From Bacillales bacterium UBA743 (GTDB lineage Bacteria > Bacillota_I > Bacilli_A > RFN20 > CAG-826): a stretch of DNA of 64,000 bases. Shown here piece after piece: positions 4,791 through 29,623 of the stretch. Both the position numbers and the translations under genes were made by a program. Below the pieces are notes generated by a model. That model was not told the origin of the DNA and ran no database searches. It worked only from the letters and a program-made list of their open reading frames with translations. The stretch is taken from the NCBI GenBank assembly GCA_002297365.1, contig DBKT01000011.1:210650-274649 (forward strand). Reading direction: 5' to 3'. The first letter of the stretch is position 1. Each line of letters starts with the position of its first letter.

Positions 4791-7334
4791 TCACTCAATG
4801 TCTCTAGATGGATGGCAGGTAAAATAAACGATTTGCTCATTTTGAGATAGGTTTTCCACGAATTTCCTCGCCATATCCATATGGGTCTCATCTAAATCGG
4901 CAAAGATATCGTCCAAAATCAGGAATGGTTTTTCTTTCCCTTCAAAAATATTGTCTGTGATGGCAAGACGATAAGAGAGAGCGCATAACGTCATTTCTCC
5001 AGAAGAGAGATATTCCGCCCCACTTCTTTTCCCATCGCGAAGGAAGCTCACGTTAAAGTTCGGATCCATTTCGATTTCTTCGCCTAAAACGTTTTCCAGA
5101 TTCTGGGAGTATTTCTTAAATTGGTTTTCAACAGGGGAAATATATCTTCTTTTTAATGACTCTTCCGCATCCGTAAGAGCGGCAAGGGTTTTTGATACGA
5201 TTTCATAGTCTTTTTTTAGTTTTGCTAGGTTTTCTTTTTCCTCTGGCAAGGAAGAAACATCGTCTTCCAAAGAAGAAATGTTTCTTTCATCTTCATCGAT
5301 TTGCGAAGAAAGGGTCTGGCGTTCGTTAATTTCCTTTTCTAATTCTTGAGAAAGGGCATTTAGATCGATTTCTTCAAGAGTAGACGGCCTTTCGGCTAAG
5401 TGTTCCTTTTCTTTGAATGAGGCAAGATCGTCTTTTTGCTTTGCAAGTTCTTTTTCCTTGTTTTGGAGAGTGTTTCGATCAATTGGAAGCTGGCTTAAAT
5501 AGGCATTTGGCTCACCCATGTTGTATTTTTGGACAAGCTCTTTGATCTTTTGCCCTTCTTCCTGAATCTTTCGATCTAGCTCTTTTCTTTGCTCTTCAAG
5601 CTGTTCTTCCTTTCGAAGATAGAAAGAGTATTTCTTTGCGTCAGAAGAAAGATTCATCAAAAGATTGGCATAGTCATTTCCTTTATAGTGATAGCGAGAG
5701 AAATTCTCTTGAAGGATTTTCTCTTTTGCTAAGCAGGAAAGTCTATTTTGCTCGTTGATTTGATTCAGCTCTTTTTCGCGTTGGAGTGTTTTTAAATAGG
5801 AATTGTATTTCGCTTTAAAGAGAGCGAAAGAGCCTTCTAATTCGTTCTCTTCCACTGCAAATGACTTAAAAGTCGAAGAAAGCGAAATCCTTAATTCCGT
5901 AAGGTTTTCTTCCGTTTTTTTCTTTTGAGGATTGGGAATATTCTCGCTAGCAGGCATCATTGCTCTTCTCTTTTTTTCATGAAGATAATGAAGGGCAGGG
6001 ATAAGTAACAAGATAGCCCATGACGCAAACAAGGAGTAAAAGGCAGGATGAACGAAGATTCCTAAAAGGATCGCCCCTATAGAGCAAATGAGAGATAAAA
6101 AGAAATAGACAAGAAGAGAGGCCTTTAGTGAGATTTTCTTTTGCTCAACAGGAACCGAAATCTGATCTGGTTCCTTCTCGTACATCTCTTTAAGACAACG
6201 ATAATTTATCATCATTTCCTCTAAGTGTTTCAAATTTACGTTTCTGCCATCAAAAAGACGAACAAGGGAAGTTTCTTCTTGCGACAATTTTAAAGGATCT
6301 TTGCTTTTTTCGCTGTTATAGGCAAGCACCAAGCTCTGGAGATCATTTAAAGCGGAGGAGCTAGGCACACCTCCTTCAAAACGGAGCTTCAAGTTGTCGT
6401 ACTCTTCTTTTTCGGCGTTGGATAATTTCAGATTGGCATAGGAATTGCCATCTAATTTATATTGCTCAAGTAGGCTTTTTGCGGAATTTTCTTCGGCTAA
6501 GGAAATCATTCCAAGAGGATATTTATCTTTCAATTGCTGAATTTCTTTTTCCTTTTCTTCGATCTTCTCTTTTTCGCGATCATAGTTTTCCCAGCTTTTT
6601 ATCAGCGCATTATGAGAGACGGCTTCCTTGTTTTTATTCTGAATAGTAGAAATATTCTTATCTAATTCTTGAAGCCTTTCATATTTAGCGGGCATTGCGT
6701 CTTTCATATCGCTAAGATTTGTCTCTTGCATTTCGAGATCGTTGATTTTGCTCATTTCCAAAGCAATAAGGCCTTTTGTATCTGCGTTTTTCTGGGGTTT
6801 GTATTTCTTTTTTAGGTTCTCAAGAGATTCTTTTACAGCCGGGAAATCGCATCCATCGGAGGAGCCTTCCACAAAATGGGACATTTTCGCATTAAGCGTT
6901 TCGCTCGAGGAAATTTCTAAATCCTTAGGCGAAATGAAGATGGTTCGGTTGAAGGAATCTAAGTCCAAGCCGAAAATCACGTTGCCAGGAACCTCTCCGA
7001 GTTCCTTGGTTTCGATTCCGTTTTTATAGCAGACTAATGTATCGTCTTTCGGCGTTTTTCCTTTGAAAGAACGCTCTATGGCATATCGATTTTCCTTCCA
7101 TTCGAAGTCCAAAGAGCCTCCGCAAGGCGAACCGTCAAGAGGCATGGCCCTTTTGCGATCGTTGTTCGCTTTGTTTGCTTTTTCCAAGCCGTAAAACATC
7201 GCGCGGATAAAAGAAGCAAGGCTGCTTTTCCCAAAGCCGTTTTTCTCGCAAATGGAAGTTAAGGATCCCTTAAAATCGATGGTCTTGTTTTTCCAATTCC
7301 CAAAACCCAAGATATGGCATTTCAATAATTTCAT
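4791..7334 (-). CDS. SbcC/Rad50-like AAA ATPase with long coiled-coil and an internal double transmembrane segment (Bacillus YhaN-like)
   Basis: N-terminal Walker A (GFGNWKNKTIDF...EKNGFGKSS). Extensive K/E-rich coiled-coil. C-terminal signature/Walker B-D loop (LSSGEMTLCALSYRLA...FLILDDIFADLDE). Two adjacent TM helices around aa 400-450. Overlaps the upstream nuclease gene by 4 bp. Confidence 0.7.
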   Translation of the reverse strand: MKLLKCHILGFGNWKNKTIDFKGSLTSICEKNGFGKSSLASFIRAMFYGLEKANKANNDRKRAMPLDGSPCGGSLDFEWKENRYAIERSFKGKTPKDDTLVCYKNGIETKELGEVPGNVIFGLDLDSFNRTIFISPKDLEISSSETLNAKMSHFVEGSSDGCDFPAVKESLENLKKKYKPQKNADTKGLIALEMSKINDLEMQETNLSDMKDAMPAKYERLQELDKNISTIQNKNKEAVSHNALIKSWENYDREKEKIEEKEKEIQQLKDKYPLGMISLAEENSAKSLLEQYKLDGNSYANLKLSNAEKEEYDNLKLRFEGGVPSSSALNDLQSLVLAYNSEKSKDPLKLSQEETSLVRLFDGRNVNLKHLEEMMINYRCLKEMYEKEPDQISVPVEQKKISLKASLLVYFFLSLICSIGAILLGIFVHPAFYSLFASWAILLLIPALHYLHEKKRRAMMPASENIPNPQKKKTEENLTELRISLSSTFKSFAVEENELEGSFALFKAKYNSYLKTLQREKELNQINEQNRLSCLAKEKILQENFSRYHYKGNDYANLLMNLSSDAKKYSFYLRKEEQLEEQRKELDRKIQEEGQKIKELVQKYNMGEPNAYLSQLPIDRNTLQNKEKELAKQKDDLASFKEKEHLAERPSTLEEIDLNALSQELEKEINERQTLSSQIDEDERNISSLEDDVSSLPEEKENLAKLKKDYEIVSKTLAALTDAEESLKRRYISPVENQFKKYSQNLENVLGEEIEMDPNFNVSFLRDGKRSGAEYLSSGEMTLCALSYRLAITDNIFEGKEKPFLILDDIFADLDETHMDMARKFVENLSQNEQIVYFTCHPSRDIE

Positions 7335-18800: not shown

Positions 18801-19380
18801 GCGATAACAATATCGTCCCATTATCGACAGAAGAATAAGGAATTCGCATTTGGGCCAAAGGCTGAGTTTCTAACCTAACGGAATGCGGTGAGGATTCTCG
18901 TTTTAAATTCTGCAAGTCCATTTGGAAATTGAGAAACAACGAAACCTCTCGATCTTAGAAAATATTTTCGTTGATTTGTTTCTCGCATCATTTTCAGAAT
19001 CGGATACAGCACGCTTATTGTCATTGAATTTCCACTCTTCTAGCGCCATTCAATTCCCTTTTGCCCAAATATTCCATATCGAAAATTCCTACATCCTTGA
19101 AAAAGCAAGCAATGAATGAATCAATTGCCTTTTTAGTCTTTCATGCAATGTCGAACCGTATCCGCTTCCCTTTTTTCTATATTTTGAAATAAGAAACGAT
19201 ATGAAAGATGCGGCGATGGTATTTGAGGTAGAATCATATGTTTTTTCATTTTATCGTCCGTTTAATGGTTTATCTTCCCACTTTAAGGTAATAAAATTGA
19301 TGTAAAGAAATAACATGTGGCAAGCACATCTAGAAATCGAGTTATGCTGTCCATAACACTTACATACAAGGAGGTCACCT

Positions 19381-20676
19381 ATGAATTGTCCGAAATGCGG
19401 AAAGGAAGTAAAAGATGGCGCAACATTTTGCAAATATTGCGGCTCTCCCATCATCCCTCATAAACAAGTTTGCCCAAAATGCGGCAAAGAAAACGATGAA
19501 GACGCTCTCTTTTGCGAAGAGTGCGGCACTTCGTTAGTTCAAGAAAAGGCTCCCGCCAAAAAAGATACGCGGGGCACTAAGGAGAAGCTTTCTCCTATCT
19601 TTAGCATGATCCTGTCTATTTCGATGATCGTTTATTTTTCTTTGTCGATCATATTACTAGGAAGCAGCTATCTTTATGTGGTTGCGGCAAATGGGGTTAC
19701 TCATATCGGCCTAAAAGAAATATTTGATGTCTTCCAACAAATCAAAAACCAATATTCAGAGACAAGCCTAGGCCATCAAATCATGGATATGGCCAATGGC
19801 GGCCTTGTTTTGGCAGAGGGCGTTTTTGCCTTGCTTTTTTCGGCTGCGATTATCACCTTTGGAGCAATAGGCATCGTCAAAGAAGCAAGGTGTCTAAAAC
19901 AAAGGAAACCTTCTTCTAGCGATATGTGCCTCATTGCCGCCGTCTTATCCACCGCCGCTTTCTATGCCTTAATGTATGGCAGCTTAACCATCGGCCAAGA
20001 AACCGTAGCTGGAATGGGGTTTGGCGTTGCTTTTATTTTCGGCTTGGGTGTGTTCTTGCTCATCTTAAAGATAGTCTATCGCTTCGTGTTTTCTTTCCAA
20101 AAAGGCAAAGGCCTTTGCTTTGCATCTTATATTTGCACTGCTGTTCTTGTATTCCAAACGATTGGTTTGCTTCGTGGACTAGCTGGGAGCTATGTTCTTT
20201 TCACAGATTCTTATTCTTCTACAACAACGACTTATCAAATCGGTTTCATCTCCTTTTTCTATCGAGGAATGGCATCAATAGCTAGTCTTTTAGAAGGAGG
20301 AACTGTAACTGTCGAGGATGCAAATGTTGCAATCGCTTATCTTATTGTCCCTATGGTTTTGACGGCTCTCATTATGATTGCCATTTGCGTTCTTTCTGTT
20401 TTAACGGCCAGAAATCTCTTTATTTCCAAAAAGAGCGCGACCCTGATTGTTTTCCCGGCCATAATTCTTTTCTTATCCATTTCGTTAATAGCTTTAGTTC
20501 CAACGGAAATCATTTGCTTGAAATCCATTAACGAGAACGCTTCCAAAATTCTGGAACAAATTAATCAAGGCAACATTGGTTTTGTTTCTTTGGGCGCTTC
20601 AGGCGTTATTCTCTCAAGCGGAATCGTTTCCTACGTTCTTAAAGCGAAAGCAAAAGAGAACACATACCTCTTATAA
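19381..20676 (+). CDS. Double zinc-ribbon domain membrane protein (N-terminal CxxC...CxxC x2, then about 8 TM helices)
   Basis: CPKCG...CKYCG and CPKCG...CEECG motifs. Long hydrophobic C-terminal region. Strong SD AAGGAGG 7 nt upstream. Confidence 0.5.
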   Translation: MNCPKCGKEVKDGATFCKYCGSPIIPHKQVCPKCGKENDEDALFCEECGTSLVQEKAPAKKDTRGTKEKLSPIFSMILSISMIVYFSLSIILLGSSYLYVVAANGVTHIGLKEIFDVFQQIKNQYSETSLGHQIMDMANGGLVLAEGVFALLFSAAIITFGAIGIVKEARCLKQRKPSSSDMCLIAAVLSTAAFYALMYGSLTIGQETVAGMGFGVAFIFGLGVFLLILKIVYRFVFSFQKGKGLCFASYICTAVLVFQTIGLLRGLAGSYVLFTDSYSSTTTTYQIGFISFFYRGMASIASLLEGGTVTVEDANVAIAYLIVPMVLTALIMIAICVLSVLTARNLFISKKSATLIVFPAIILFLSISLIALVPTEIICLKSINENASKILEQINQGNIGFVSLGASGVILSSGIVSYVLKAKAKENTYLL

Positions 20677-20841
20677 ATAACTCAAAACACGAGTTTTCTC
20701 TTATTTCCATTCACGCCAACAAAAGATAATAACAAAGAAAAGCTGGCATTCCAACAAGAAAGCGCTCTATTTACTTTTTATCTAGATTTCTCTTTCTTTT
20801 TGCTCTAAGGTATCCGAAATACCTTTTTAAAAGGAGCCGAA

Positions 20842-21972
20842 ATGAAACTAGAAAATATTAGAGTGGGCCTCACTTATGACGACCTTCTCCTCATCCCCCA
20901 AGAATCCAGCGTCTTGCCAAAAGAAACGAAAGTCGACACCTGCCTCACCAAACGCATCCATCTAAACATCCCAATCCTATCCGCTGCCATGGATACGGTA
21001 AGCGAGCATGAGATGGGGATCACCCTTGCCCGTTTAGGAGGGTTGGCCATCATCCATAAAAACCTATCGATTGAAAATCAAGCAAAAGAAGTCTCGTTAG
21101 TTAAGGAAGCGGATGTTAAAGGCTACCCTAATGCCGCTTTAGATATAAATGGGCGTCTTCTTTCAGGAGCGGCTATCAGTGTCTCTGATAATATGTTAGA
21201 AAGAGTGTCCGCTCTTCTTAAAGCGGGCGTAGACGTGCTCGTTTTAGATTCTGCACACGGGCATTCCAAAAACATCATCGATGCCGTGAAAACAATAAGG
21301 AAACTATATCCAGAGATAAATCTCATCGCTGGTAACATTGTCACAAAAGAAGCTGCAGCCGCTTTAATTGATGCAGGCGTCGATGCCGTCAAAGTAGGTA
21401 TTGGCCCCGGATCTATTTGCACAACGCGTGTTGTCGCTGGCGTGGGTTGCCCTCAAGCCACGGCTGTGGATGAAGTTGCTAGCTATTGCAAAGAAAAAGG
21501 AATTGGAGTCATTGCCGATGGTGGGCTTAAATATTCAGGCGACATTGTCAAGGCACTCGCTCTTGGCGCAAACGCTGTCATGTTAGGATCCATGTTAGCC
21601 GGATGTGACGAAACACCAGGTGAAATCATCGAATCCAACGGAAAGAAATATAAATCCTATGTTGGAATGGGTTCTTTAGCGGCAATGTCCAGAGGCTCTG
21701 CGGACCGTTATTTCCAAGATAAAAACACGGAACAAAACAAACTTGTCCCAGAAGGCATTGAAGGGATTACTTCTTATAAAGGAAAAGTGTCCGATGTCAT
21801 TTATCAACTACTTGGTGGCCTTCATAGTGGTTTGGGTTATTGCGGCGCTCACAGTCTAGACGAGCTCAAAGAAAAAGCCGTTTTCATCCGAGTCACGAAT
21901 AACGGTTTAATCGAAGGGCACCCTCACGATATAAACATCGTGAAGGATGCACCGAATTATCAAAAAAGATAG
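20842..21972 (+). CDS. guaB: IMP dehydrogenase, short form lacking the CBS/Bateman subdomain
   Basis: Catalytic loop [16 protein letters not shown]-specific flap with RY dyad (GSADRYFQ). K+ site GGLxxGxxxxK-like motifs. 376 aa, with no roughly 120-aa CBS pair. SD AAAAGGAG upstream. Confidence 0.85.
21842..21972 (+). repeat. Left copy of a 131-bp direct repeat (the last 43 codons plus stop of guaB); putative attL of the integrated element
   Basis: Nearly identical (4 mismatches) to 25842..25972. Both copies end exactly at the TAG stop codon. Confidence 0.85.
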
Positions 21973-22358
21973 CCTAAGTAAAATCGAATCTTCAAGGCGC
22001 AATTTGCGATCCAATTTGTGGATTCTTGGTTCTTGATGTGGTTATGGGCGTTCCTCCAGCTTAGCACCAGCCCTTAGGCAGAAAAACATGCGCGTCGTTT
22101 CTCTCAACGATATCCCTGCCAATGAGGGTAATAATTTTAGTCCCTAAATCTAATTCCATCTTTTTCCTCCTCCGGGTATTGACGTTATGAATCTGATTTC
22201 CAAATTTTCTTTAGGCTCCCCATACACTTGTGACGATATTGCCTTTTAAAATCGTTTTAGCCTCACATTTCAAGCATTTTTCTTCAAATCCACTAAAAGT
22301 CAGAGTCTTAATCTCCGTATTGGAGAATAGGGATTCCAAATCGTATTTTGATTTAAAG

Positions 22359-23501
22359 TTAAGAGACTTTATTTTTCTTCTTGCAAGATGAGTAAGAGAA
22401 ACCGGGAAAAAGCTTCCTTTGCTTAATAAAAAGTTTTTTTCTTTGATTTAAAGTCAGCGAAGAAATAGACATCTTATCGTCAGGATACTCTTCAAACCCC
22501 GAATCCTCCCATCCGCACACAGGGCATATCTCATGGCTGAGGGCGTCCGGGAAAGTGTGCTCCCCGCAGCATGGGCATTCATGAGGCTCCTTCTCCTCTA
22601 CTTGTGTCTGTATCTCTATCCCCTTTTCGCCTGTTTCGTTTCCTGTCTTTATTCTTCTCTTTTCACCTTTCTTTGGCTCATAGATAAAACTATCATTAAC
22701 TTGATAAAAAGAGACTACATAACCGTTCCGTGTCACAATGACGAGAGTTCCATCACGGACATCATATTTGTAGGTTTTTCCTTTCCAATCCGCCAAATTC
22801 TTCAAGTGTTTATGATCCGATGAGTTCGCAAAACGAACGGCGAAGGAAGCATAATCATCAGGACTAGGAGTGGAAAAATCCGATGCGTTCGCAAAGAATT
22901 GTTCTAGAAGATATCGCTTGTTAAAAGCCTTTGCCAATTTACGAAGATTGTTTTTCGCTTTTGTTTTTCCTTCATTCTCCTTAGGAGCTCTATTTTTTCT
23001 CCCTCTCGGCCTTCCTAAAGGCGAGAAACGGAATTTAGGATTTCGTTTTCTGTGCTCAGTGAACCATGACTTTCTTTCGTTTAGGCTCATACAAAAATAT
23101 GATATTCTCTCATCTGGCTCATCCTCAAACCCCGAATCCTCCCATCCGCACACAGGGCATATCTCATGGCTGAGGGCGTCCGGGAAAGTGTGCTCCCCGC
23201 AGCATGGGCATTCATGAGGCTCTTTCTTTTGGGGTTGCTCGTTATCATATTCCCATTTGGGATTGCCGCGCTTTTTTGCTTTATACCAGGCTTTGTACTC
23301 ATTTAAGGACATCACATTGGATTGCTTCTCTAAATTAGGATTCCGAAATTGTTCAAGGTCGTAAAACCAACCGCAACAGGTGCACTGCAAATCGTTCGGT
23401 GTTTTTCCGTCTTCTATTTCTTCTTCCGAAAGTTTTGTAAAATAAAACTTATGACAGACGGGGCAAAGCATGGGCTTCACCTGTTTTATTTTTTTATCCA
23501 T
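22359..23501 (-). CDS. Cysteine-rich CPCC-type zinc-ribbon repeat protein (three CPCC modules) with a central domain homologous to the adjacent 125-aa ORF
   Basis: Three modules of C-P-x-C...C-P/T-C-C-G-W...ED followed by SLNE(R/Y)K motifs. Two are identical at the protein and DNA level (98-bp perfect repeat). The central about 70 aa (FANSSDHKHLKNLADWKGKTYKYDVRDGTLVIVTRNGYVVSFYQV) aligns with the C-terminus of ORF 23486..23863. Confidence 0.5.
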   Translation of the reverse strand: MDKKIKQVKPMLCPVCHKFYFTKLSEEEIEDGKTPNDLQCTCCGWFYDLEQFRNPNLEKQSNVMSLNEYKAWYKAKKRGNPKWEYDNEQPQKKEPHECPCCGEHTFPDALSHEICPVCGWEDSGFEDEPDERISYFCMSLNERKSWFTEHRKRNPKFRFSPLGRPRGRKNRAPKENEGKTKAKNNLRKLAKAFNKRYLLEQFFANASDFSTPSPDDYASFAVRFANSSDHKHLKNLADWKGKTYKYDVRDGTLVIVTRNGYVVSFYQVNDSFIYEPKKGEKRRIKTGNETGEKGIEIQTQVEEKEPHECPCCGEHTFPDALSHEICPVCGWEDSGFEEYPDDKMSISSLTLNQRKKLFIKQRKLFPGFSYSSCKKKNKVS

Positions 23502-23863
23502 ACTGTTTTCTTCCCCCTTCCTTTTTTAGGAACATAAGTAAAATGATCTGCTATGCGGTAATAAGAAATCACATAGCCTTTTTTATCTATCAATGCTAAA
23601 ACGTGATTTACTATATCATATTTATAGGTCGTCCCATTGCAGTCGACAACGCTCTTAAAATGTTTTCGGTCAACTGTATTGGCAAAATGCACCGCCTTTG
23701 AAACATACTCTTCTGCTGTTGTTGCGCCAAACTCTTTTCCATGATCGTGAAAGTGCCTTTCTAAACCGCCTCGATTAAATCCTTTTGCCCAAGCAAAACG
23801 GATATGCTCTGTTCTTGAACCATTCGTATTTCCGTAGCGAAAGCTAGCTCCTTTAGTTGCCAT
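23486..23863 (-). CDS. Small hypothetical protein; possible BECR-fold (RelE/colicin-like) nuclease-toxin-like domain (inference only)
   Basis: 125 aa, basic. Conserved block FANTVDRKHFKSVVDCNGTTYKYDIVNHVLALIDKKGYVISYYRI shared with the neighbouring CPCC protein. Overlaps both neighbours (translational coupling). Confidence 0.4.
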   Translation of the reverse strand: MATKGASFRYGNTNGSRTEHIRFAWAKGFNRGGLERHFHDHGKEFGATTAEEYVSKAVHFANTVDRKHFKSVVDCNGTTYKYDIVNHVLALIDKKGYVISYYRIADHFTYVPKKGRGKKTVWIKK

Positions 23864-24560
23864 AAGAGTTTACCTCCAAATTTCGTTTCCTTCTTTCTTC
23901 AATGAAGGAATCATAAATATAGAATTCCACAAATTTTTTGTAGTCGTCGATGATGTCTTGCGGAAGATGACCAATAACGATAAAACCTCTTGGTTCTAAC
24001 TTTTGAATTAAAGATAGTATCCAAACTCTCCATTCATATCTCTGTTCTTTGCGTTTAATAAAACCATGTACACCTAATGCAATATAGGTATGTTTCGGAA
24101 AGGCTTGTAGATATTCCTCATCGAGACAATCAGAGCCGCCCCTGCAATTGGGAATCAAAGGAATGCCGTTTTTCCCATAGTAGAAAGATAGTGAAAGATT
24201 GTCGTTCAACTGGGCCTTTTGTTTTACAAGGGGCATGTCAGAATGAACGGAGAAATCAAAGCCAACAATTCCTCCACAGCGTTTGAAGAAACTTAAATAT
24301 CTTTTTGGATTTCTGCGAATTCTCTCAAAAGTTTTATCAGGAGAATAAAAATAAACATAATAATCGCTTAAATCACCGCGATAAGTGATTGCCCTTGAAA
24401 AAGGCATGATTTTTCTTGGTGGAATGGAAGAAATCATCGATTCTTCAAGAATTGGGTACTCCTCGTTTTGAGTGAAATTCGCTCCATCCACCAAGAAAGC
24501 TTGGAACGAGTCTTCGACAATTCCGTCTTTGTTTTTGTACATTAGAATACCTCCTAGCAT
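23853..24560 (-). CDS. Hypothetical protein (235 aa, Cys/His-containing; function unknown), first cargo gene downstream of immA
   Basis: ORF with SD AGGAGG 7 nt upstream of the ATG. No recognisable catalytic motif by eye. Confidence 0.4.
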   Translation of the reverse strand: MLGGILMYKNKDGIVEDSFQAFLVDGANFTQNEEYPILEESMISSIPPRKIMPFSRAITYRGDLSDYYVYFYSPDKTFERIRRNPKRYLSFFKRCGGIVGFDFSVHSDMPLVKQKAQLNDNLSLSFYYGKNGIPLIPNCRGGSDCLDEEYLQAFPKHTYIALGVHGFIKRKEQRYEWRVWILSLIQKLEPRGFIVIGHLPQDIIDDYKKFVEFYIYDSFIEERRKRNLEVNSYGN

Positions 24561-24583
24561 TAAGCCGATACAAATTTGAGACG

Positions 24584-24627
24584 GATATGCTACAATTTAC
24601 TCGGTTAGGTGTGCTTTGTAGCATATC
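24584..24627. promoter_or_regulatory. Perfect 12-bp inverted repeat (GATATGCTACAA-N20-TTGTAGCATATC) between immA and the cargo genes; candidate repressor operator
   Basis: Exact reverse-complement arms read directly. Located about 35 bp upstream of the cargo-gene SD. Confidence 0.45.
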
Positions 24628-24666
24628 TCTAATGCTCTTGTTACTGCGAATAACAAGGGCTTTTTA

Positions 24667-25284
24667 TTAGCGGATTTTCTCAATACGTTTATTGAGCGAA
24701 TCCTTTAATAAACCATTTATAATCGTTTCGTAGCGGACCTCTTTTAAGCCATAGCTAGCTTGAGTTCTGCTTATATTGCGACTGACGATAATATTGGCTT
24801 CCGCCTTCGAGACTTCAAATATTTGGCTAACCATTCCTGTATTAAATAGAGTTTGATCGTTTGGCCTTGTTAAAACAAGAGAATTGGGGGCCAATAGATA
24901 TGTCGCACCAAAATTCGCTTCATATTCATTTCTCTCGTTTTGTTCCGTGTGGCCCAAAATTAAATGGCATATTTCATGAGCCAAGGAAAATCTTTGCCTC
25001 TCTTTGGAACAGCCTACATCATCCAAATAAATAACCGTTTTTTCAGTGAATGGATCAAAATAAAGATAGGACTCTTCAGAAGGGCGTTTATAGTAAACAT
25101 ATCCCTTTGTTGATTTTTTCGGATGTTTTTCGCTTTCTAGAATTAATTTTATGTTCATTTTCTCAACTAAATCAAAGACATTAATAGGGATGCAGTTCAC
25201 ATTATAATCTTCTAAAAGATATGCAATCTTAGTTCGAATTGATTCATAATCCCGACAACATAAACGCATAAAAGACCTCGCCAA
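24667..25284 (-). CDS. ImmA/IrrE-family zinc metallopeptidase (anti-repressor protease)
   Basis: HEICHLILGH (HExxH) motif in a roughly 200-aa protein immediately downstream of, and abutting, an XRE repressor gene. Confidence 0.8.
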   Translation of the reverse strand: MARSFMRLCCRDYESIRTKIAYLLEDYNVNCIPINVFDLVEKMNIKLILESEKHPKKSTKGYVYYKRPSEESYLYFDPFTEKTVIYLDDVGCSKERQRFSLAHEICHLILGHTEQNERNEYEANFGATYLLAPNSLVLTRPNDQTLFNTGMVSQIFEVSKAEANIIVSRNISRTQASYGLKEVRYETIINGLLKDSLNKRIEKIR

Positions 25285-25590
25285 CTAACTTTTTAATATA
25301 TATGCGATAAGCATTTTCTTCTCTTTTTCGCTCATATTTTCAAGGCCTCGAGCAAGAAGAACTTTTCTCTTTGCGAAACTAGGAGCATCCTCCACCTCGT
25401 TTCCGATAAGGTCATCGGTTGTAACGCCTAAAGCTTTAGAAAGATTCGCAACCACGTCAATTCTCGGGGTTCTTTCGCCATTAAGATACTTCGACATGGA
25501 AGCTTCCGTGATTCCGGTTTTCTCTGCCAATTGTTTTTGTGTCATTTTCTTTTCATTCATAAACATTTTGACCCTTTCATTGAATTTCAT
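25285..25590 (-). CDS. XRE-family helix-turn-helix transcriptional repressor (ImmR-like). The preferred start is the ATG at 25590, which has an SD; the ORF track extends to 25617.
   Basis: HTH_XRE signature (QKQLAEKTGITEASMSKYLNGERTP). SD AAAGGAGAAAG 7 nt upstream of the ATG at 25590. Confidence 0.8.
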   Translation of the reverse strand: MKFNERVKMFMNEKKMTQKQLAEKTGITEASMSKYLNGERTPRIDVVANLSKALGVTTDDLIGNEVEDAPSFAKRKVLLARGLENMSEKEKKMLIAYILKS

Positions 25591-25626
25591 GGTTCTTTCT
25601 CCTTTGGTTGTTTTCAACTTGCCATT

Positions 25627-25655
25627 ATTGTAATTTTCATTATTATTATTGTCAA
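25627..25655 (-). promoter_or_regulatory. Sigma70/SigA-type promoter for the immR operon (TTGACA-17 nt-TACAAT)
   Basis: Perfect -35 (rc of 25650-25655) and near-consensus -10 (rc of 25627-25632) with a 17-nt spacer, about 30 nt upstream of the immR SD. Confidence 0.55.
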
Positions 25656-25726
25656 TACGGCATATATTATTTAGGACTGCTAATCTTTAAGTAGACAGCA
25701 CATTACAATTTTGCACGCAAATTGCG

Positions 25727-25972
25727 ATGCTCTGTGAACAAGGGGGCCACGAAGATGAAACTCACGGAAGAAGAAAGGCTCCCAGTCGGAAGAATGCTGC
25801 ACGAAGGGATCCCTCCCAACCCCCGTGGGGGGCTTGCGCTGGCGGCACTCACAGTCTAGACGAGCTCAAAGAAAAAGCCGTTTTCATCCGAGTCACGAAT
25901 AACGGTTTAATCGAAGGGCACCCTCACGATATAAGCATCGTGAAGGATGCGCCGAATTACCAAAAAAGATAG
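25727..25972 (+). pseudogene. Non-functional duplicate of the guaB 3' end (last about 43 codons) fused to unrelated GC-rich sequence
   Basis: C-terminal 43 aa near-identical to the GuaB C-terminus. The N-terminal part is unrelated, and there is no promoter or SD. Confidence 0.5.
25842..25972 (+). repeat. Right copy of the 131-bp direct repeat (duplicated guaB 3' end); putative attR
   Basis: Sequence identity with 21842..21972 apart from 4 substitutions. Preceded by an atypically GC-rich stretch of about 100 bp (25740-25845). Confidence 0.85.
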
Positions 25973-26412
25973 GGTTTATTTACATACAAAGAATTCCCTT
26001 GTCAAAAAGGGCTGCTAATCAATCTAATTGTTTTAAACAGCCGCTTTCTTTCATGTACGAAATGTAGGCGACGGAAAGACGACTCAGGAAACAGGAGAAG
26101 GAATCATCTGTGTGTCATCCTTCAATGATTGTTTGGAAAACAGCATCTAGTCCCGAAGTAAAGAAATCCAAACAAAGCATGTCTTTCTCGTTGGTTTGTT
26201 CTCTTAAGACTTTTTCTTTTTCTTTTTTGGATGAATAAAAATAGGTGCGGAAATCACTAACTCTTAAGAGCGAAGACATCATTTGAGCATTCTTCTTCAA
26301 CCAAAAAATAAACCTTTAAGCGTGTCTTGAAAGTTCTCGCTTGCATTATTCATTCGGAACAAATGATGATCAATAATGTAACGAATAAATCGCTTTTAGA
26401 AGCGCCACGAAC

Positions 26413-27513
26413 ATGTATTCCGTTGGAACCGATGAGGCAGGCGTTTATAAGCACTGGGCTTGGTGCCAGGCTACTATTAGTCAGAAAAAAGAGGGTTTTT
26501 GGCTTTGGGAAAAAACCTATATCGATAAGGACTTTTATTCATTTGATATGGTTTCAACCGGAACTTTGACGGTGACTTTAGAAAACATACCAACAAATTG
26601 TGATTATGATTTAAGGCTCTATCGTTTGGAAGACTCACCGATAGCAAATGTCAAAACCATGAATTTTCAAAACCACATTGCAAAAAGTTCTGCTGCAGGA
26701 AATCAAAACGAAAAAATCGAAGTTTCGGCAAAGCCAGGTACATATTACGCTTGTGTTTATTCGTACGAGGATAGAACATATGACAATGATAACCCATATA
26801 AAATCACCTTTGAAGAAGCCATTGATACCGCTAGAGCGGGATCCCATTACAGCATAAGTGAAGGAAGAAACAATGGTGATTTAGGAGCAATTTGGATAAG
26901 TGACTACGCTCCTTTAGGAATCACTCCAAGCACGATTTATCGTGACTACAACAATAAAACGTGTAGACAAACTTATTCGAATTATGATGACTACCCTTAT
27001 ATAAGGCATTTAGCTGACAAATATTCCGATTGGAAAGACATGACTTATGCAATTCTATATGTATGGGATGTTGAAACAAGAGCAGCTATATATGCCACCC
27101 TTAAGTGCCTGTTAAAAACGATTGATGGATATGGTGATTGGGAAGATTCACAAGAAAGAGAAATGAGTATTTTTTTGAATGAAACTAGTCTTTGCGTTAG
27201 CGTAGCCGGCTTAGCGAGCTGCTATGAAACCAGCAATCCATTCTCAACCAGCAAGGGGCGTTTCCGCGACTATCTAATTAGTATGATTAGTGCATTCGAA
27301 ATTGGAATGGGGAGTAATGACAAAGAAGTCGTCATGATGCGTTTTAAATATCATTTCGGAAGATCAAACATGAGATATGTAGAATGGCTTCCAATGTACG
27401 ATGTTGGCGAAGGTACAAGATATAATAGCGATGCCATATCATTTCAAACGAAAGGAAGCGGAATTGACGGAAGAGTATTTGGATTCAAAAACGAGACGGA
27501 CGTCGAATTCTGA
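26413..27513 (+). CDS. Hypothetical cytoplasmic protein with a PPC (pre-peptidase C-terminal)-like beta-sandwich segment
   Basis: 366-aa ORF. The segment TLTVTLENIPTNCDYDLRLYRLED...GTYYACVYSY resembles PPC-type domains. An in-frame stop lies 8 codons upstream, so there is no signal peptide. Confidence 0.4.
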   Translation: MYSVGTDEAGVYKHWAWCQATISQKKEGFWLWEKTYIDKDFYSFDMVSTGTLTVTLENIPTNCDYDLRLYRLEDSPIANVKTMNFQNHIAKSSAAGNQNEKIEVSAKPGTYYACVYSYEDRTYDNDNPYKITFEEAIDTARAGSHYSISEGRNNGDLGAIWISDYAPLGITPSTIYRDYNNKTCRQTYSNYDDYPYIRHLADKYSDWKDMTYAILYVWDVETRAAIYATLKCLLKTIDGYGDWEDSQEREMSIFLNETSLCVSVAGLASCYETSNPFSTSKGRFRDYLISMISAFEIGMGSNDKEVVMMRFKYHFGRSNMRYVEWLPMYDVGEGTRYNSDAISFQTKGSGIDGRVFGFKNETDVEF

Positions 27514-27529
27514 CTAGGGTTGTAAAGGC

Positions 27530-27805
27530 ATGGAAGAAAAACAGACAATACGAACATCGTCAAATAGAAAAACCATTAGTAGACTAAAGTTTTTAGAAGG
27601 ATGGGTACTGTTACTACCGCTCTTGATTTTGATGTTTTTTGATATTTGGATGATTTTTAAATTGGTATTTGGGCTTCAGACATCCACCATCAGTAATCTC
27701 GAAATATATTATTTAATCATGCTGATCTTTATTTTTCTCTTCTTCTTTATGTTTGTTTTTCCCGACCTACGCAAGGAAAACTCCAAAACAGCACAATTGT
27801 GCTAG
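27530..27805 (+). CDS. Small membrane protein (2 TM), hypothetical
   Basis: 91-aa ORF with two hydrophobic helices. Confidence 0.3.
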   Translation: MEEKQTIRTSSNRKTISRLKFLEGWVLLLPLLILMFFDIWMIFKLVFGLQTSTISNLEIYYLIMLIFIFLFFFMFVFPDLRKENSKTAQLC

Positions 27806-28017
27806 ACCACAGGGTCATTGTCACAGAACGTATACTGCGTTCAAATAATTTTGTTGTGGAAAGACAACCGATTCTTTATATCAAAGAAAGTCGTCGTTGT
27901 TTCAAAATAGGACAAAGCTGGTATTCTTCCTTCATTGTTCCTAAAGAATGCCTCTCCCATGAGCAAAAGGACGCGATACGTAGATTAAAAACGAGAATCA
28001 AAAACGAAAAGAAATGA
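27799..28017 (+). CDS. Small basic hypothetical protein
   Basis: 72-aa ORF overlapping the previous one by 7 bp. No further support. Confidence 0.2.
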   Translation: MLDHRVIVTERILRSNNFVVERQPILYIKESRRCFKIGQSWYSSFIVPKECLSHEQKDAIRRLKTRIKNEKK

Positions 28018-28087
28018 TAAGATTATCATCAAAAAGATCATTCAAAAAAGGCGCACTTCTTACGTTTACAATGTGCGCCTTCTTTGT

Positions 28088-29623
28088 TTATTCCAATTCA
28101 ATCGTGCTCGGTGGTTTTGAAGTAAAGTCATAAACCACACGGTTAACTCCTTTGACTTCATTCACAATGCGGTTTGAGATATGAGTAATAACTTCAAATG
28201 GAATATTAGCTGGTTTAGCAGTCATGAAATCATCGGTCGTCACCGCGCGAAGAACGATCGCATACTCATACGTTCTTCCGTCTCCCATGACTCCCACAGA
28301 ACGCATATTGGATAAGGCTGCAAAGTATTGGTTAATCTTTTTATCTAAACCCGCTTTAGCGATTTCTTCACGGAATATGGCGTCCGCATCTTGGACGATA
28401 CGAATCTTTTCTTTATTGATTTCGCCGATGATACGAATGCCTAAGCCCGGCCCTGGGAATGGTTGGCGATAAACAAGTTCATGAGGCAATCCCAACAAGA
28501 GCCCTAATTCTCTGACTTCATCCTTAAATAAATCTTTTAACGGTTCCACAAGTCCTTCAAAACCTAGATCCTTTGGAAGTCCGCCAACGTTATGATGAGA
28601 TTTAATGGTTTGAGAAATTCCCAAGCCTGATTCAATTCTGTCTGGATAGATGGTTCCCTGAGCAAGGTATTCGCAATGAGGGATCCTTTCTTTTGTTTCT
28701 TTGAAAACATCGATGAAAGATTTGCCGATGATTTTTCTTTTTTGCTCCGGATCGGTAACGCCTGCAAGCCTTTCAAGGAAAAGGTTTGAAGCGTCCACAG
28801 GCAAGAAATGGAAGCCAAATTTCTCTTTGTTAGAGAAGGTGGTAATAACATTCTTTGCCTCATCTTTCCTAAGAAGCCCATGATCGACAAATACGCAAGT
28901 CAATTGAGAACCGACGGCTTTGCCAATCAATGCGGCAACGACCGAGGAATCCACTCCTCCCGATAAAGCGCAAATAACTTTCTTATCTCCGACTTGTTTA
29001 CGAATTTCCCTAATCTTATCGTCAATAAAGGAAGAAGGTTTCCAGCTTGGAGAGCATTTGCAGATATCCCACACGAAATTCTCAATAATCTTTTGGCCGT
29101 ATTCGCTATGCTCCACTTCTGGATGGAATTGGGTCGCGTAGAGCTTTTTTTCTTCATTAATGAAAATGGAATTATGGCAATGAGCACTGCTTCCAATACA
29201 GGAAAATCCCTCAGGGAGCGTCGTGACTTGATCGTTATGCGACATGAAAACGTTGCTCGTTTGAGGAATGCCTTTGGTTAATAGAGATGAAGAATTTAGA
29301 GTCACTTCCACATTTCCGAATTCGGAAGATTCGCAGCTTTCCACTTTGCCCCCAAGAGTATATGCCATAAGCTGAGCGCCGTAGCAGATTCCAAGAATCG
29401 GTTTCCCAAGAGAGAAGATTTTAGCGTCAATATGAGGCGATTTCTCATCGTAGACACTGTTTGGGCCACCAGTGAAGATAATGCCTTTGATATCGGGCGA
29501 AGAAAGAACATCCAAAGAGGTCGTATAAGGTAAGACTTCGCTATAAACGTGGGTTTGTCTTACTCTTCTGGCGATTAACTGGTTATATTGGCCGCCAAAA
29601 TCCAAAACAATTATTTTTTCCAT
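28088..29623 (-). CDS. guaA: GMP synthase (glutamine-hydrolysing)
   Basis: Class I glutamine amidotransferase domain (GICYGAQL, catalytic Cys/His). ATP-PPase P-loop SGGVDSSV. Conserved C-terminal dimerisation domain. 511 aa. Confidence 0.9.
   Translation of the reverse strand: MEKIIVLDFGGQYNQLIARRVRQTHVYSEVLPYTTSLDVLSSPDIKGIIFTGGPNSVYDEKSPHIDAKIFSLGKPILGICYGAQLMAYTLGGKVESCESSEFGNVEVTLNSSSLLTKGIPQTSNVFMSHNDQVTTLPEGFSCIGSSAHCHNSIFINEEKKLYATQFHPEVEHSEYGQKIIENFVWDICKCSPSWKPSSFIDDKIREIRKQVGDKKVICALSGGVDSSVVAALIGKAVGSQLTCVFVDHGLLRKDEAKNVITTFSNKEKFGFHFLPVDASNLFLERLAGVTDPEQKRKIIGKSFIDVFKETKERIPHCEYLAQGTIYPDRIESGLGISQTIKSHHNVGGLPKDLGFEGLVEPLKDLFKDEVRELGLLLGLPHELVYRQPFPGPGLGIRIIGEINKEKIRIVQDADAIFREEIAKAGLDKKINQYFAALSNMRSVGVMGDGRTYEYAIVLRAVTTDDFMTAKPANIPFEVITHISNRIVNEVKGVNRVVYDFTSKPPSTIELE

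Follow-up and report, generated by a model that had tools for sequence, protein, structure and literature searches.

The subject of this study is a stretch of 64,000 nucleotides (nt) from contig DBKT01000011.1 of Bacillales bacterium UBA743 (GenBank assembly GCA_002297365.1), hereafter the window, to which all positions refer unless another locus is named, and within it a five-gene operon on the minus strand (22359-25617). We found that this region is a 4-kb islet integrated at the 3' end of guaB. Our overall picture, to which we assign a probability of about 0.6, is that the islet joins a repressor/protease switch to a three-gene toxin core, and that this core represents a polymorphic toxin-immunity family linked to the protein family DUF4417. 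The five-gene arrangement is far beyond chance, and its order recurs in dozens of unrelated genomes. An initial annotation, made from the letters of the window, had described the operon as a conflict module headed by a repressor and a peptidase, and the present analysis supports that description; what it had overlooked are the guaB-repeat islet, the glycine-rich leader of the toxin and the pairing of DUF4417 with leader-tagged effectors as a widespread core.

The operon encodes, from its promoter onwards, an XRE-family helix-turn-helix (HTH) repressor, an ImmA/IrrE-type metallopeptidase of family M78, a DUF4417 protein, a toxin candidate of 125 amino acids (aa) and a protein with Cys_rich_CPCC units (the CPCC protein; Table 1). 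All five minus-strand open reading frames (ORFs) are present and co-directional, as had been claimed, and we refined their starts from the positions of ribosome-binding sites (RBSs) and from the genes called on 23 further contigs of the species, each carrying an identical 125-aa protein. The repressor also matched the PADLOC capH model (1.7e-16) and, though below its cutoff, the NCBIfam RstR-type repressor model (6e-18), and the peptidase matched PADLOC capP (9.2e-11) and the metallo-protease family phrog_87. Profile searches of the three cargo proteins, as proposed in the initial annotation, placed two of them in Pfam families (DUF4417, 4e-22; Cys_rich_CPCC, 4e-28) and gave zero Pfam matches for the 125-aa protein; in the 380-aa CPCC protein, CPxC motifs lie at residues 13, 98/115 and 309/326. 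The uncharacterised 235-aa protein that had been placed in the integrase slot is the DUF4417 protein, and it does stand where int stands in immR-immA-int operons of the ICEBs1 type.

The promoter, TTGACA-17-TACAAT, was rightly called textbook, with 11 of 12 positions matched. Because the total of promoter-like sites across the region is not above that of shuffled sequence, the evidence for this promoter is its position and its quality, not enrichment. The description of the gene junctions as tiny gaps or overlaps applies to XRE/M78 (a gap of 15 nt), DUF4417/toxin (an overlap of 11 nt) and toxin/CPCC (an overlap of 16 nt), but not to M78 and DUF4417, between which lies a spacer with two stable hairpins. 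The second of these has a 12-bp stem (ATATGCTACAA...TTGTAGCATAT), and the spacer could be a candidate operator or an RNA element. TTGTA/TACAA half sites like those of the stem are also present in the XRE promoter region (25712-25700 and the -10 box), and a scan of positions 19000-29000 against Rfam returned zero RNA families.

Both members of the toxin-immunity pair are related to proteins of known structure. A profile of the toxin family matched 8ey4_A at a marginal E value of 0.019, the common motif being H[FW]xxHGKEF..Y..A..F, and the CPCC protein matched 8ey4_I and 8ey3_A (the latter two named 'Cys_rich_CPCC domain-containing protein') with an E value of 1.1e-9. Because 8ey4_I is the immunity chain of a deposited toxin-immunity complex of contact-dependent inhibition (CDI; PDB 8EY4), the two genes are homologous to the two partners of one solved complex, which makes the toxin/immunity assignment solid. 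In the AlphaFold2 (AF2) model of the toxin (43-sequence alignment, predicted local distance difference test (pLDDT) 75.6), two helices precede an antiparallel sheet of five to six strands, the succession of helices and a 4-5-stranded antiparallel sheet that marks the BECR fold. The active-site motif of Tox-ColD is [KH]K..Hxx[ED] plus a downstream [ST] and [TS]xxK (PMC3482391); the toxin's H37-F-x-x-H41-G-K-E44 fits this signature, with F in place of K608. Across the 43 aligned sequences, H37 and H41 are kept in 90% or more, and none lacks T79 or K81, which belong to the motif T79-Y80-K81. The Pfam Colicin_D model did not match the toxin. The protein is most likely a metal-independent RNase of the colicin-D/CdiA-CT type that cuts tRNA, as judged from its sequence and model, and the CPCC protein, by analogy with the CDI complex, would bind and block it. 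In 44 of 46 loci, the CPCC gene directly follows a ColD-like toxin gene. We rejected a classical type II toxin-antitoxin (TA) system for want of a DNA-binding antitoxin: the CPCC protein has no HTH, ribbon-helix-helix (RHH) or AbrB domain, and it is encoded after the toxin. Thus the RelE/colicin-like fold and the immunity role that had been guessed for the 125-aa and zinc-ribbon proteins agree with the AF2 model and with the CdiI-chain homology, respectively, but the idea that the effector and immunity components are novel has to be given up, as their homology to the chains of 8EY4 indicates known kinds.

A copy of the 125-aa domain lies inside the 380-aa protein, as had been noticed earlier (40% identity over 94 aa, E 2e-25 in BLASTP). 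This copy reads QFFANASDF where the toxin has HFHDHGKEF and is catalytically degenerate because the catalytic histidines are lost. The 210-nt CPCC-coding repeats (family D1) are 633 nt apart. The immunity gene of the sister strain GCA_003501705.1 encodes only 169 aa, and the difference, as aligned for locus L009 against the window, is a clean 211-aa (633-nt) deletion between the CPCC repeats. Recombination between the 210-nt repeats adds or removes the toxin-like insert. CPCC homologues elsewhere mostly have 147-241 aa, and single-unit forms have 81-97 aa. The internal copy is therefore not well described as a decoy, as the initial annotation had suggested: degenerate, strain-variable and absent from GCA_003501705.1, it is best read as a dispensable orphan cassette of toxin origin that has been joined in frame to the immunity units on either side of it.

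We asked how the five genes are arranged elsewhere. A scan with the DUF4417 alignment, one genome per species, gave 465 confirmed loci, 80 of which were fetched; 75 of these have an intact DUF4417 ORF, 69 of them with upstream sequence. The carriers belong to Erysipelotrichaceae, Bacilli, Oscillospiraceae, Lachnospiraceae, Christensenellaceae and Acholeplasmataceae and are mostly gut or rumen metagenome-assembled genomes (MAGs); 'cleanbin' MAG records labelled Escherichia coli, Alistipes shahii and Bacteroides uniformis (L022, L028, L035, L055) probably reflect binning or labelling errors and not host range. The initial annotation had raised the question of whether the cargo co-occurs with XRE/ImmA pairs. 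It does: an HExxH protein of 170-250 aa is encoded directly upstream of DUF4417, and an ORF of 100-130 aa before that, in 54 of the 69 loci, and this ORF is an XRE-type HTH protein where examined. Fic takes the place of the HExxH protein in at least five loci. Contigs with toxin homologues always carry DUF4417, toxin and CPCC in that order, preceded by XRE and M78, by divergent versions of both or by Fic, and 46 of 73 downstream proteins match a hidden Markov model (HMM) of the ColD-like toxin. In one lineage (L107/L108), M78 and DUF4417 form a single polypeptide of 415-423 aa in the order XRE-[M78-DUF4417]-toxin-CPCC, and this argues strongly that peptidase and DUF4417 function as a unit. Among 22 complete modules, the median identity between pairs was 56% for DUF4417, 69% for the leader, 45% for the rest of the toxin, 48% for CPCC, 26% for XRE and 25% for M78. 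As the XRE and M78 values are far lower than the others, we regard the DUF4417-toxin-CPCC triad as the core and the switch as exchangeable.

One Oscillospiraceae locus (L016, 1155-8818) carries two tandem DUF4417 cassettes with a YhcG-like nuclease gene between them. The first consists of Fic, DUF4417 (215 aa), a PD-(D/E)xK-like protein of 146 aa with the leader MGRGRGGY and a Cys-rich protein of 177 aa, and the second of Fic, DUF4417, a ColD-like toxin and CPCC; this looks like cassette accretion at one site, beside rpsI.

Every protein encoded directly after DUF4417 in the fetched genome loci opens with a glycine-rich leader. In the close clade it reads M-[AS]-T-K-G-x-S-x-x-Y-G-N-x-x-G, with K4, G5, Y10 and G11 in 40 of 40 sequences, and in a clade whose DUF4417 is 33-37% identical it is MGAGFHGGFGGTHG, MGKGGGGHFSGTRGS or MGTGRSGLYSGTQGS. 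What follows the leader varies: at least eight unrelated C-terminal families were found behind it in genomes, with further ones in phages, and the downstream partner co-varies with the toxin type. ColD-like toxins are paired with CPCC and DUF6883 (4e-32) with DUF4926 (3e-14); likewise a PBECR1-like BECR nuclease (1e-5) has a partner of 107-116 aa, a HELNH peptidase a zinc-ribbon partner of 176-179 aa and an 'LKHIF..GH' type a partner of 74-110 aa, and a PD-(D/E)xK-like type and others stand behind the leader in the distant clade. Additional pairs of leader-toxin and partner lie downstream in L090 (3593-5268) and L094 (8666 onward), orphan-like arrays such as those of CDI and Rhs loci. The hallmarks of polymorphic toxins are a constant N-terminus, swappable toxin domains, co-varying immunity and orphan cassettes (PMC3482391). 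Here the constant element is a leader of 15-25 aa plus a separate DUF4417 gene, and the orphan cassettes have their counterparts in the arrays of L090 and L094 and in the 633-bp insert of the window. Pfam detected no trafficking domain or secretion system (type V, VI or VII (T5SS, T6SS, T7SS), MuF or RHS) in the five window proteins.

The same pairing occurs in phages. By tblastn, DUF4417 was found in 124 phage records (74 Mycobacterium, 44 Streptococcus), all below 30% identity, and a scan of viral contigs gave at least 550 confirmed loci, of which 80 were fetched. Only one of these 80, L111 (52% identity), is near the islet-type clade, the next best reaching 36%, and it has all five genes of the module. 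In 27 of the 37 viral loci examined, the protein encoded after DUF4417 opens with MGGRG[SA]SS, MGxG or (V)SKRGSGSS. Phage DUF4417 often has an N-terminal extension, which is ParB-like in the annotated examples (IPP53, phrog_940). The phage leader proteins carry ART-PolyVal, ADPrib_exo_Tox, papain-fold glutamine deamidase (Gln_amidase, 1e-15) or lethal-factor-like metallopeptidase domains, and such effector types have been reported in MuF-fused and polyvalent phage proteins that are predicted to be delivered by virions (PMC5512222). In Streptococcus pyogenes phage A25 the order is gp22 (DUF4417), gp23 (MSDKGDKYGTEY...) and terS; in mycobacteriophage Keziacharles14 it is gp1 (DUF4417), gp2 (MGQGSGGSGPGTG..., a HELAH peptidase), gp3, HNH and terS; and in pneumococcal phage IPP53 a ParB-DUF4417 protein is followed by a 248-aa protein with an internal GGGRG motif and by terL.

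DUF4417 is the most conserved gene of the module. With E 1e-3 or better as the threshold, its representatives fall into 1,462 clusters at 50% identity, and most are stand-alone proteins with 210-240 aa. An AF2 model built from 52 sequences (pLDDT 87, predicted template modelling score (pTM) 0.84) has an alpha/beta barrel-like fold, resembling a TIM barrel, with invariant polar residues at the C-terminal ends of strands. Invariant across the family are D75, D102, S104, D108, Q114, G166 and G197 (235-aa numbering); besides the three aspartates D75, D102 and D108, a late acidic residue (YDS near 217) is common, though not invariant. tRNA-guanine transglycosylase (TGT) and DpdA also have three aspartates (acid/base, base recognition and late nucleophile), the last of which has no strictly conserved counterpart in DUF4417, and DpdA needs a ParB-like partner, DpdB (PMC10164549). 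ParB-DUF4417 fusions are common in phages (phrog_940), and the ParB-DUF4417 link is also reported in bioRxiv 10.1101/2025.10.10.680097. Because these fusions are common and DpdA likewise needs DpdB, we favour a nucleic-acid substrate, and the model suggests that DUF4417 is probably a TIM-barrel enzyme acting on nucleic acid. A Pfam scan of 52 DUF4417 members at E values up to 10 revealed neither TGT (PF01702) nor any other recurrent second family, a PDB sequence search with the DUF4417 profile returned nothing, and neither DUF4417 nor the toxin received a functional name from PADLOC, NCBIfam or PHROGs, apart from the PHROG 'nuclease' tag of ParB-DUF4417 fusions. We rejected a role as a lysin: DUF4417 has no signal peptide, is fused to ParB and to methylase, and is encoded beside terminase. 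A tandem DUF4417-DUF4417 protein (P0448, a single chain of 438 aa) suggests that DUF4417 works as a dimer, and another member (P0472) has a C-terminal Sigma70_r2 domain.

The islet is bounded by two copies of the guaB 3' end, direct repeats of 131 nt that are 97% identical and spaced exactly 4000 bp apart. The insertion leaves guaB undamaged, as the first repeat copy supplies the final 131 nt of the gene; an 81-aa ORF (25727-25972) at the second has a weak PF00478 match. Just inside both islet ends lies the inverted repeat I1 (22 nt, 21998-22019 and 25705-25726, 82% complementary), with the core CGCAAWTTGCG, which in the arm at 25705-25726 is CGCAAATTGCG. L023 and L065 have loosely I1-like TTGCG/CGCAA motifs close to their ends, with no family-wide consensus. 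The G+C content of the islet is 39.3%, as against 41-42.5% for the flanks, and neither the ORFs nor Pfam revealed a recombinase or integrase between the repeats (21973-25841). The islet arms contain a 42-aa ORF (22339-22211, minus strand), a 32-aa ORF with a strong RBS (22159-22061, minus strand, MELDLGTKIITLIGRDIVERNDAHVFLPKGWC) that is also called on other contigs, and a 34-aa ORF (25756-25860, plus strand, MKLTEEERLPVGRMLHEGIPP...) that runs into repeat copy B; these small ORFs had zero Pfam matches.

Modules between clean direct repeats that duplicate local sequence were found at at least 12 further loci, at different sites and with repeats of 25-320 bp. In L023 the repeat lies at the 5' end of an alpha-amylase gene and is 116 bp long; its length is 138 bp in L024, 117 bp in L065 and 320 bp, with 100% identity, in L070; it directly follows tRNA genes in L098 (60 bp) and L056 (about 160 bp), and measures 103, 52, 43, 35 and 25 bp in L057, L084, L071, L083 and L033. 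The span between repeats is 2.75-4.1 kb and holds five genes only. We detected no common core, conserved terminal sequences or inverted repeats across the elements, and their arms share no k-mers. Campbell-type homologous recombination of a circle carrying a piece of the target, mobilisation in trans and an activity of DUF4417 are possible explanations for the mobility of the islets. At the boundaries of L056 (2977-3137 and about 6550-6700, near the tRNA gene) we observed iteron-like direct repeats, with four to five copies of TAATCGTTTACA[GA]AGT and four of TTGCAAC. The five-gene module adjoins two large serine recombinases in L111 (5297-8162) and a small serine resolvase and a type I HsdM gene in L021 (6890-7672, 1433-3268); therefore the module can also be cargo of larger mobile elements.

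Next to the islet of the window stands a gene with a PPC domain (26413-27513, plus strand), intact and encoding 366 aa, which is split into two ORFs (157 + 191-199 aa) in strains of the same species (L004, L006, L008), a pseudogenisation polymorphism at strain level. guaB and guaA (GMP synthase, 28088-29623, minus strand) are about 6 kb apart, and as both the islet and the PPC-domain gene sit between them, foreign DNA has gathered in this purine-gene neighbourhood.

Table 1. Features of the guaB islet and its boundaries in the window (1 = first nucleotide of the window).
Feature	Position	Strand	Remarks
guaB (IMP dehydrogenase, 376 aa), integration target	20842-21972	+	PF00478
Direct repeat copy A (att-like), guaB 3' end including stop codon	21842-21972		Repeat search, family D2
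Islet arm downstream of immunity gene	21973-22358	-	42-aa ORF, 32-aa ORF, one I1 arm
Immunity gene, 380 aa, three Cys_rich_CPCC units	23501-22359	-	PF14206, 4.4e-28
Two 210-nt CPCC-coding repeats	22385-22594 and 23018-23227		Repeat family D1
Degenerate toxin-domain copy in immunity gene	22653-22934	-	Residues ~190-283
Toxin candidate, 125 aa, pI 9.9	23863-23486	-	Leader MATKGASFRYGNTNG, then colicin-D/CdiA-CT-type BECR RNase domain (predicted activity)
DUF4417, 229 aa from RBS-backed ATG (AGGAGG)	24542-23853	-	PF14386, 4e-22; ORF reaches 24560
M78-DUF4417 spacer, two stable hairpins, 124 nt	24543-24666	-	RNA fold -33.3 kcal/mol, z -2.98
ImmA/IrrE-type M78 (COG2856) metallopeptidase, 200 aa	25269-24667	-	HEICH motif; PF06114, 7.3e-12
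XRE-family HTH repressor, 101 aa	25590-25285	-	Pfam HTH_3 1.6e-14, HTH_26 1.3e-14
Promoter TTGACA-17-TACAAT, sigma-70-type	25655-25627	-	~35 nt 5' of XRE start codon
Islet arm upstream of XRE	25618-25841	-	Promoter, second I1 arm, G+C-rich hairpin adjoining repeat
Direct repeat copy B, orphan guaB 3' end	25842-25972		Family D2; original downstream DNA beyond

From these observations we propose how the module may work. XRE would repress the TTGACA/TACAAT promoter, and a DNA-damage or phage cue would activate M78, so that XRE would be cleaved and the operon de-repressed, as in ImmR/ImmA, DdrO/IrrE and CapH/CapP. DUF4417, toxin and CPCC would then be made by translational coupling from genes whose overlaps we observed. 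The toxin would cut tRNA, most likely, as its fold and motif suggest, and the CPCC protein would block it in the producer, as expected from the homology of both partners to 8EY4. DUF4417 would dock the glycine-rich leader and serve as carrier or activator shared by all the effector domains that can stand behind it. We suggest this carrier role because the gene linkage is strict, because the leader is kept across effector swaps and because DUF4417 is fused to M78 and to ParB. On balance we propose that a small mobile element here carries a toxin module which is inducible and serves kin discrimination or addiction.

Several points weigh against this picture of a mobile, switch-controlled, DUF4417-linked toxin module. 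An empty guaB site was not found: all contigs with an identical IMP dehydrogenase carry the islet, and a pattern bridging the empty site was unmatched in metagenome contigs, so there is no sign of recent mobility in this species. The XRE/M78 switch is an exchangeable accessory, since it is very divergent between modules and is replaced by Fic in some, and the hairpin-rich spacer of 124 nt could mean two transcription units instead of one. As to DUF4417, Foldseek returned nothing significant for its model against PDB, and hhalign of DUF4417 profiles with phage 9g DpdA gave a probability of 0.1-0.2%, both for the DpdA sequence by itself and for a profile of 19 sequences, which is shallow, the retrieved homologues all being at least 70% identical. 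The cysteine pattern of the Zn site (CxCxxC...H) is absent from the DUF4417 alignments, which contain no conserved cysteines. The binding of the leader by DUF4417 is inferred from linkage only, and the roles of all components are computational predictions. Finally, the islet contains no secretion or delivery genes, and PADLOC models match neither DUF4417 nor the toxin, so neither a defence nor a competition role is established.

We weighed other explanations against the DUF4417-linked polymorphic toxin family. The module could act inside the cell, in abortive infection or as a three-component TA system in which phage infection or DNA damage triggers M78, the operon is over-expressed or immunity is out-titrated, and the RNase halts translation in the infected cell, with DUF4417 sensing or modifying a nucleic-acid cue. 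We take this possibility seriously, at somewhat worse than even odds. XRE and M78 resemble CapH/CapP, which control defence operons (bioRxiv 10.1101/2022.04.27.489752), Xre-COG2856 with RelE or PIN toxins has been predicted to form three-component TA systems (PMC2701414), and the islet has neither export genes nor signal peptides. Moreover, in the M78-DUF4417 fusion, DUF4417 stands where IrrE/CapP have their C-terminal sensor (GAF) domain, and three loci (L087, L092, L021) stand beside restriction or OLD-like genes. However, toxin and immunity genes are co-transcribed with immunity last, and nothing points to a labile antitoxin; orphan toxin-immunity arrays and homology to a CDI pair are features that mark systems of competition between cells; the phage copies have no XRE, M78 or obvious immunity gene; and DUF4417 has no counterpart among the PADLOC models. 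A second alternative is a polymorphic toxin that hitch-hikes in virions, as has been proposed for MuF-fused and polyvalent effectors of phages: leader and DUF4417 would load the effector onto packaged DNA or capsids, and particles of co-induced prophages would deliver it to cells lacking CPCC. The gene order in phages A25, Keziacharles14 and IPP53, where DUF4417/leader-effector pairs lie directly upstream of terS or terL, speaks for it, as do effector domains typical of virion-delivered MuF and polyvalent proteins (ART-PolyVal, Gln_amidase, ADPrib_exo_Tox, PBECR1, metallopeptidase; PMC5512222), the ParB-DUF4417 fusions that tie DUF4417 to DNA (bioRxiv 10.1101/2025.10.10.680097), an SOS-type switch that would be co-induced with prophages, and the polymorphism with cognate immunity and orphan cassettes. 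We give it only slightly less weight than action inside the cell. Against it, the presence of DUF4417 or leader proteins in virions would follow from analogy, no prophage is linked to the islet within the window, and a pure adaptor role leaves the strongly conserved, catalytic-looking residues of DUF4417 unexplained. A more specific variant is distinctly improbable in our estimate. It holds that a compact, TGT/DpdA-like DUF4417 recognises the short leader (MATKG..YGNTRGG, MGAGFHGGFGGTHG or MGGRGSSSG) and couples the effector to DNA, a new mode of trafficking or activation for polymorphic effectors, which would serve co-packaging and injection in phages, hitch-hiking of islets on co-induced particles and perhaps islet mobility too.

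The position of DUF4417, exactly at the int place of ICEBs1-type operons, raises the possibility that it is the recombinase or mobilisation enzyme of the islet, with the toxin-immunity pair as addiction cargo. The islets are indeed repeat-bounded, occupy many different sites and hold no other candidate enzyme, and DUF4417 is their most conserved gene, with a nucleic-acid-enzyme-like fold in the model. Against this, the repeats differ in sequence, range in length from 25 to 320 bp and have neither a core nor conserved ends in common, which ill suits a site-specific enzyme, DUF4417 lies beside terminase in phages that have their own integrases, and the universal linkage to the leader ties it to the effector and not to att sites. 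To our knowledge, the TIM-barrel fold is also without precedent as a DNA strand-transferase, and we think a recombinase role very unlikely. Least credible is a decayed prophage or integrative and conjugative element (ICE), of which the repressor/anti-repressor end would remain with random cargo. Pairs of the ImmR/ImmA type typically mark the ends of prophages and ICEs, an integrase is missing from the islet and both islet arms contain small, broken-looking ORFs. But none of the five operon ORFs is broken, the toxin keeps its catalytic residues, and we rejected this explanation because exactly this five-gene unit, alone between repeats, recurs in dozens of genomes at different sites with 25-80% protein identity.

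If DUF4417 is the carrier or activator that we propose for the polymorphic toxin family, it would represent a new delivery principle for polymorphic toxins and would give a function to a common phage gene beside terminase, in a family that ranges over Firmicutes gut and rumen bacteria, streptococcal phages and mycobacteriophages. The searchable literature describes no function of DUF4417, and we found its pairing with leader-tagged effectors in no paper; DUF4417 as an obligate neighbour of such effectors in phages and islets, its fusion to M78 and the integrase-less, repeat-bounded islets appear to be undescribed. A separate question raised by the islets is the means by which elements so small can move. 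These questions are directly testable because some carriers are in culture, namely Anaerotignum lactatifermentans An390, Hominifimenecus microfluidus CLA-AA-H215, Ruminococcaceae bacterium P7, S. pyogenes phage A25 and cluster-A mycobacteriophages.

Finally, we asked how the module compares with known systems. The solved CdiA-CT/CdiI pair of E. coli O32:H37 (PDB 8EY4, 8EY3) is homologous to its toxin and immunity components, but the islet has no CdiA filament, CdiB or VENN pre-toxin; its toxin is a free 125-aa protein with a glycine-rich leader in a MAG of Gram-positive type, and the immunity proteins of the module have two or three CPCC units where CdiI has one. The colicin D operon, with its SOS-induced tRNase and immunity gene, shares the nuclease fold and motif, the downstream position of immunity and probably a stress- or SOS-type control, whereas receptor-binding and translocation domains and a lysis gene are missing from the islet and XRE/M78 would take the place of LexA. 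The repressor/peptidase switch is of a known kind. Like the ImmR-ImmA(-Int) operons of ICEBs1 and phi105, the islet operon begins with XRE and then a COG2856/M78 peptidase, and its direction is towards the end of the integrated element; unlike them, the islet has DUF4417 and not an integrase as its third gene, is only 4 kb long and lacks xis, conjugation and phage genes. The CapH/CapP operons of CBASS, DISARM and other systems had been put forward as a paradigm, and the likeness holds to the extent that the capH and capP models match and that a repressor and a peptidase, which DNA damage would activate, head toxic cargo. However, the CapH/CapP genes lie upstream of their cargo operon on the opposite strand, and CapP ends in a GAF domain (bioRxiv 10.1101/2022.04.27.489752), whereas the islet genes are co-directional, the short peptidase (200 aa) matches only positions 4-143 of the 242-position capP model with no Pfam GAF match, and the cargo has no PADLOC match. 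We thus rejected membership of the CBASS-type CapH/CapP group on orientation and GAF domain, and regard the analogy as loose.

Polymorphic toxins and MuF-toxins or polyvalent proteins (PMC3482391, PMC5512222) resemble the module in their constant N-terminus, swappable toxins, downstream immunity and orphan cassettes, and the MuF and polyvalent effectors also in their repertoire (BECR, PBECR1, ART, papain-fold deamidase, metallopeptidase). In contrast to MuF, LXG, RHS and PAAR systems, the module has a short leader with a separate DUF4417, and its chromosomal copies add the XRE/M78 switch. Makarova et al. (2009) predicted Xre-COG2856 three-component toxin-antitoxin systems with RelE or PIN toxins (PMC2701414); these likewise place Xre and COG2856 in one operon with an RNase of the RelE superfamily, but the module has five genes and not three, with a dedicated immunity protein that does not bind DNA and an obligatory DUF4417 partner. 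Compared with DpdA/DpdB and the tRNA-guanine transglycosylases, DUF4417 is about 100-150 aa shorter, has no Zn subdomain and has no deazaguanine synthesis genes nearby.

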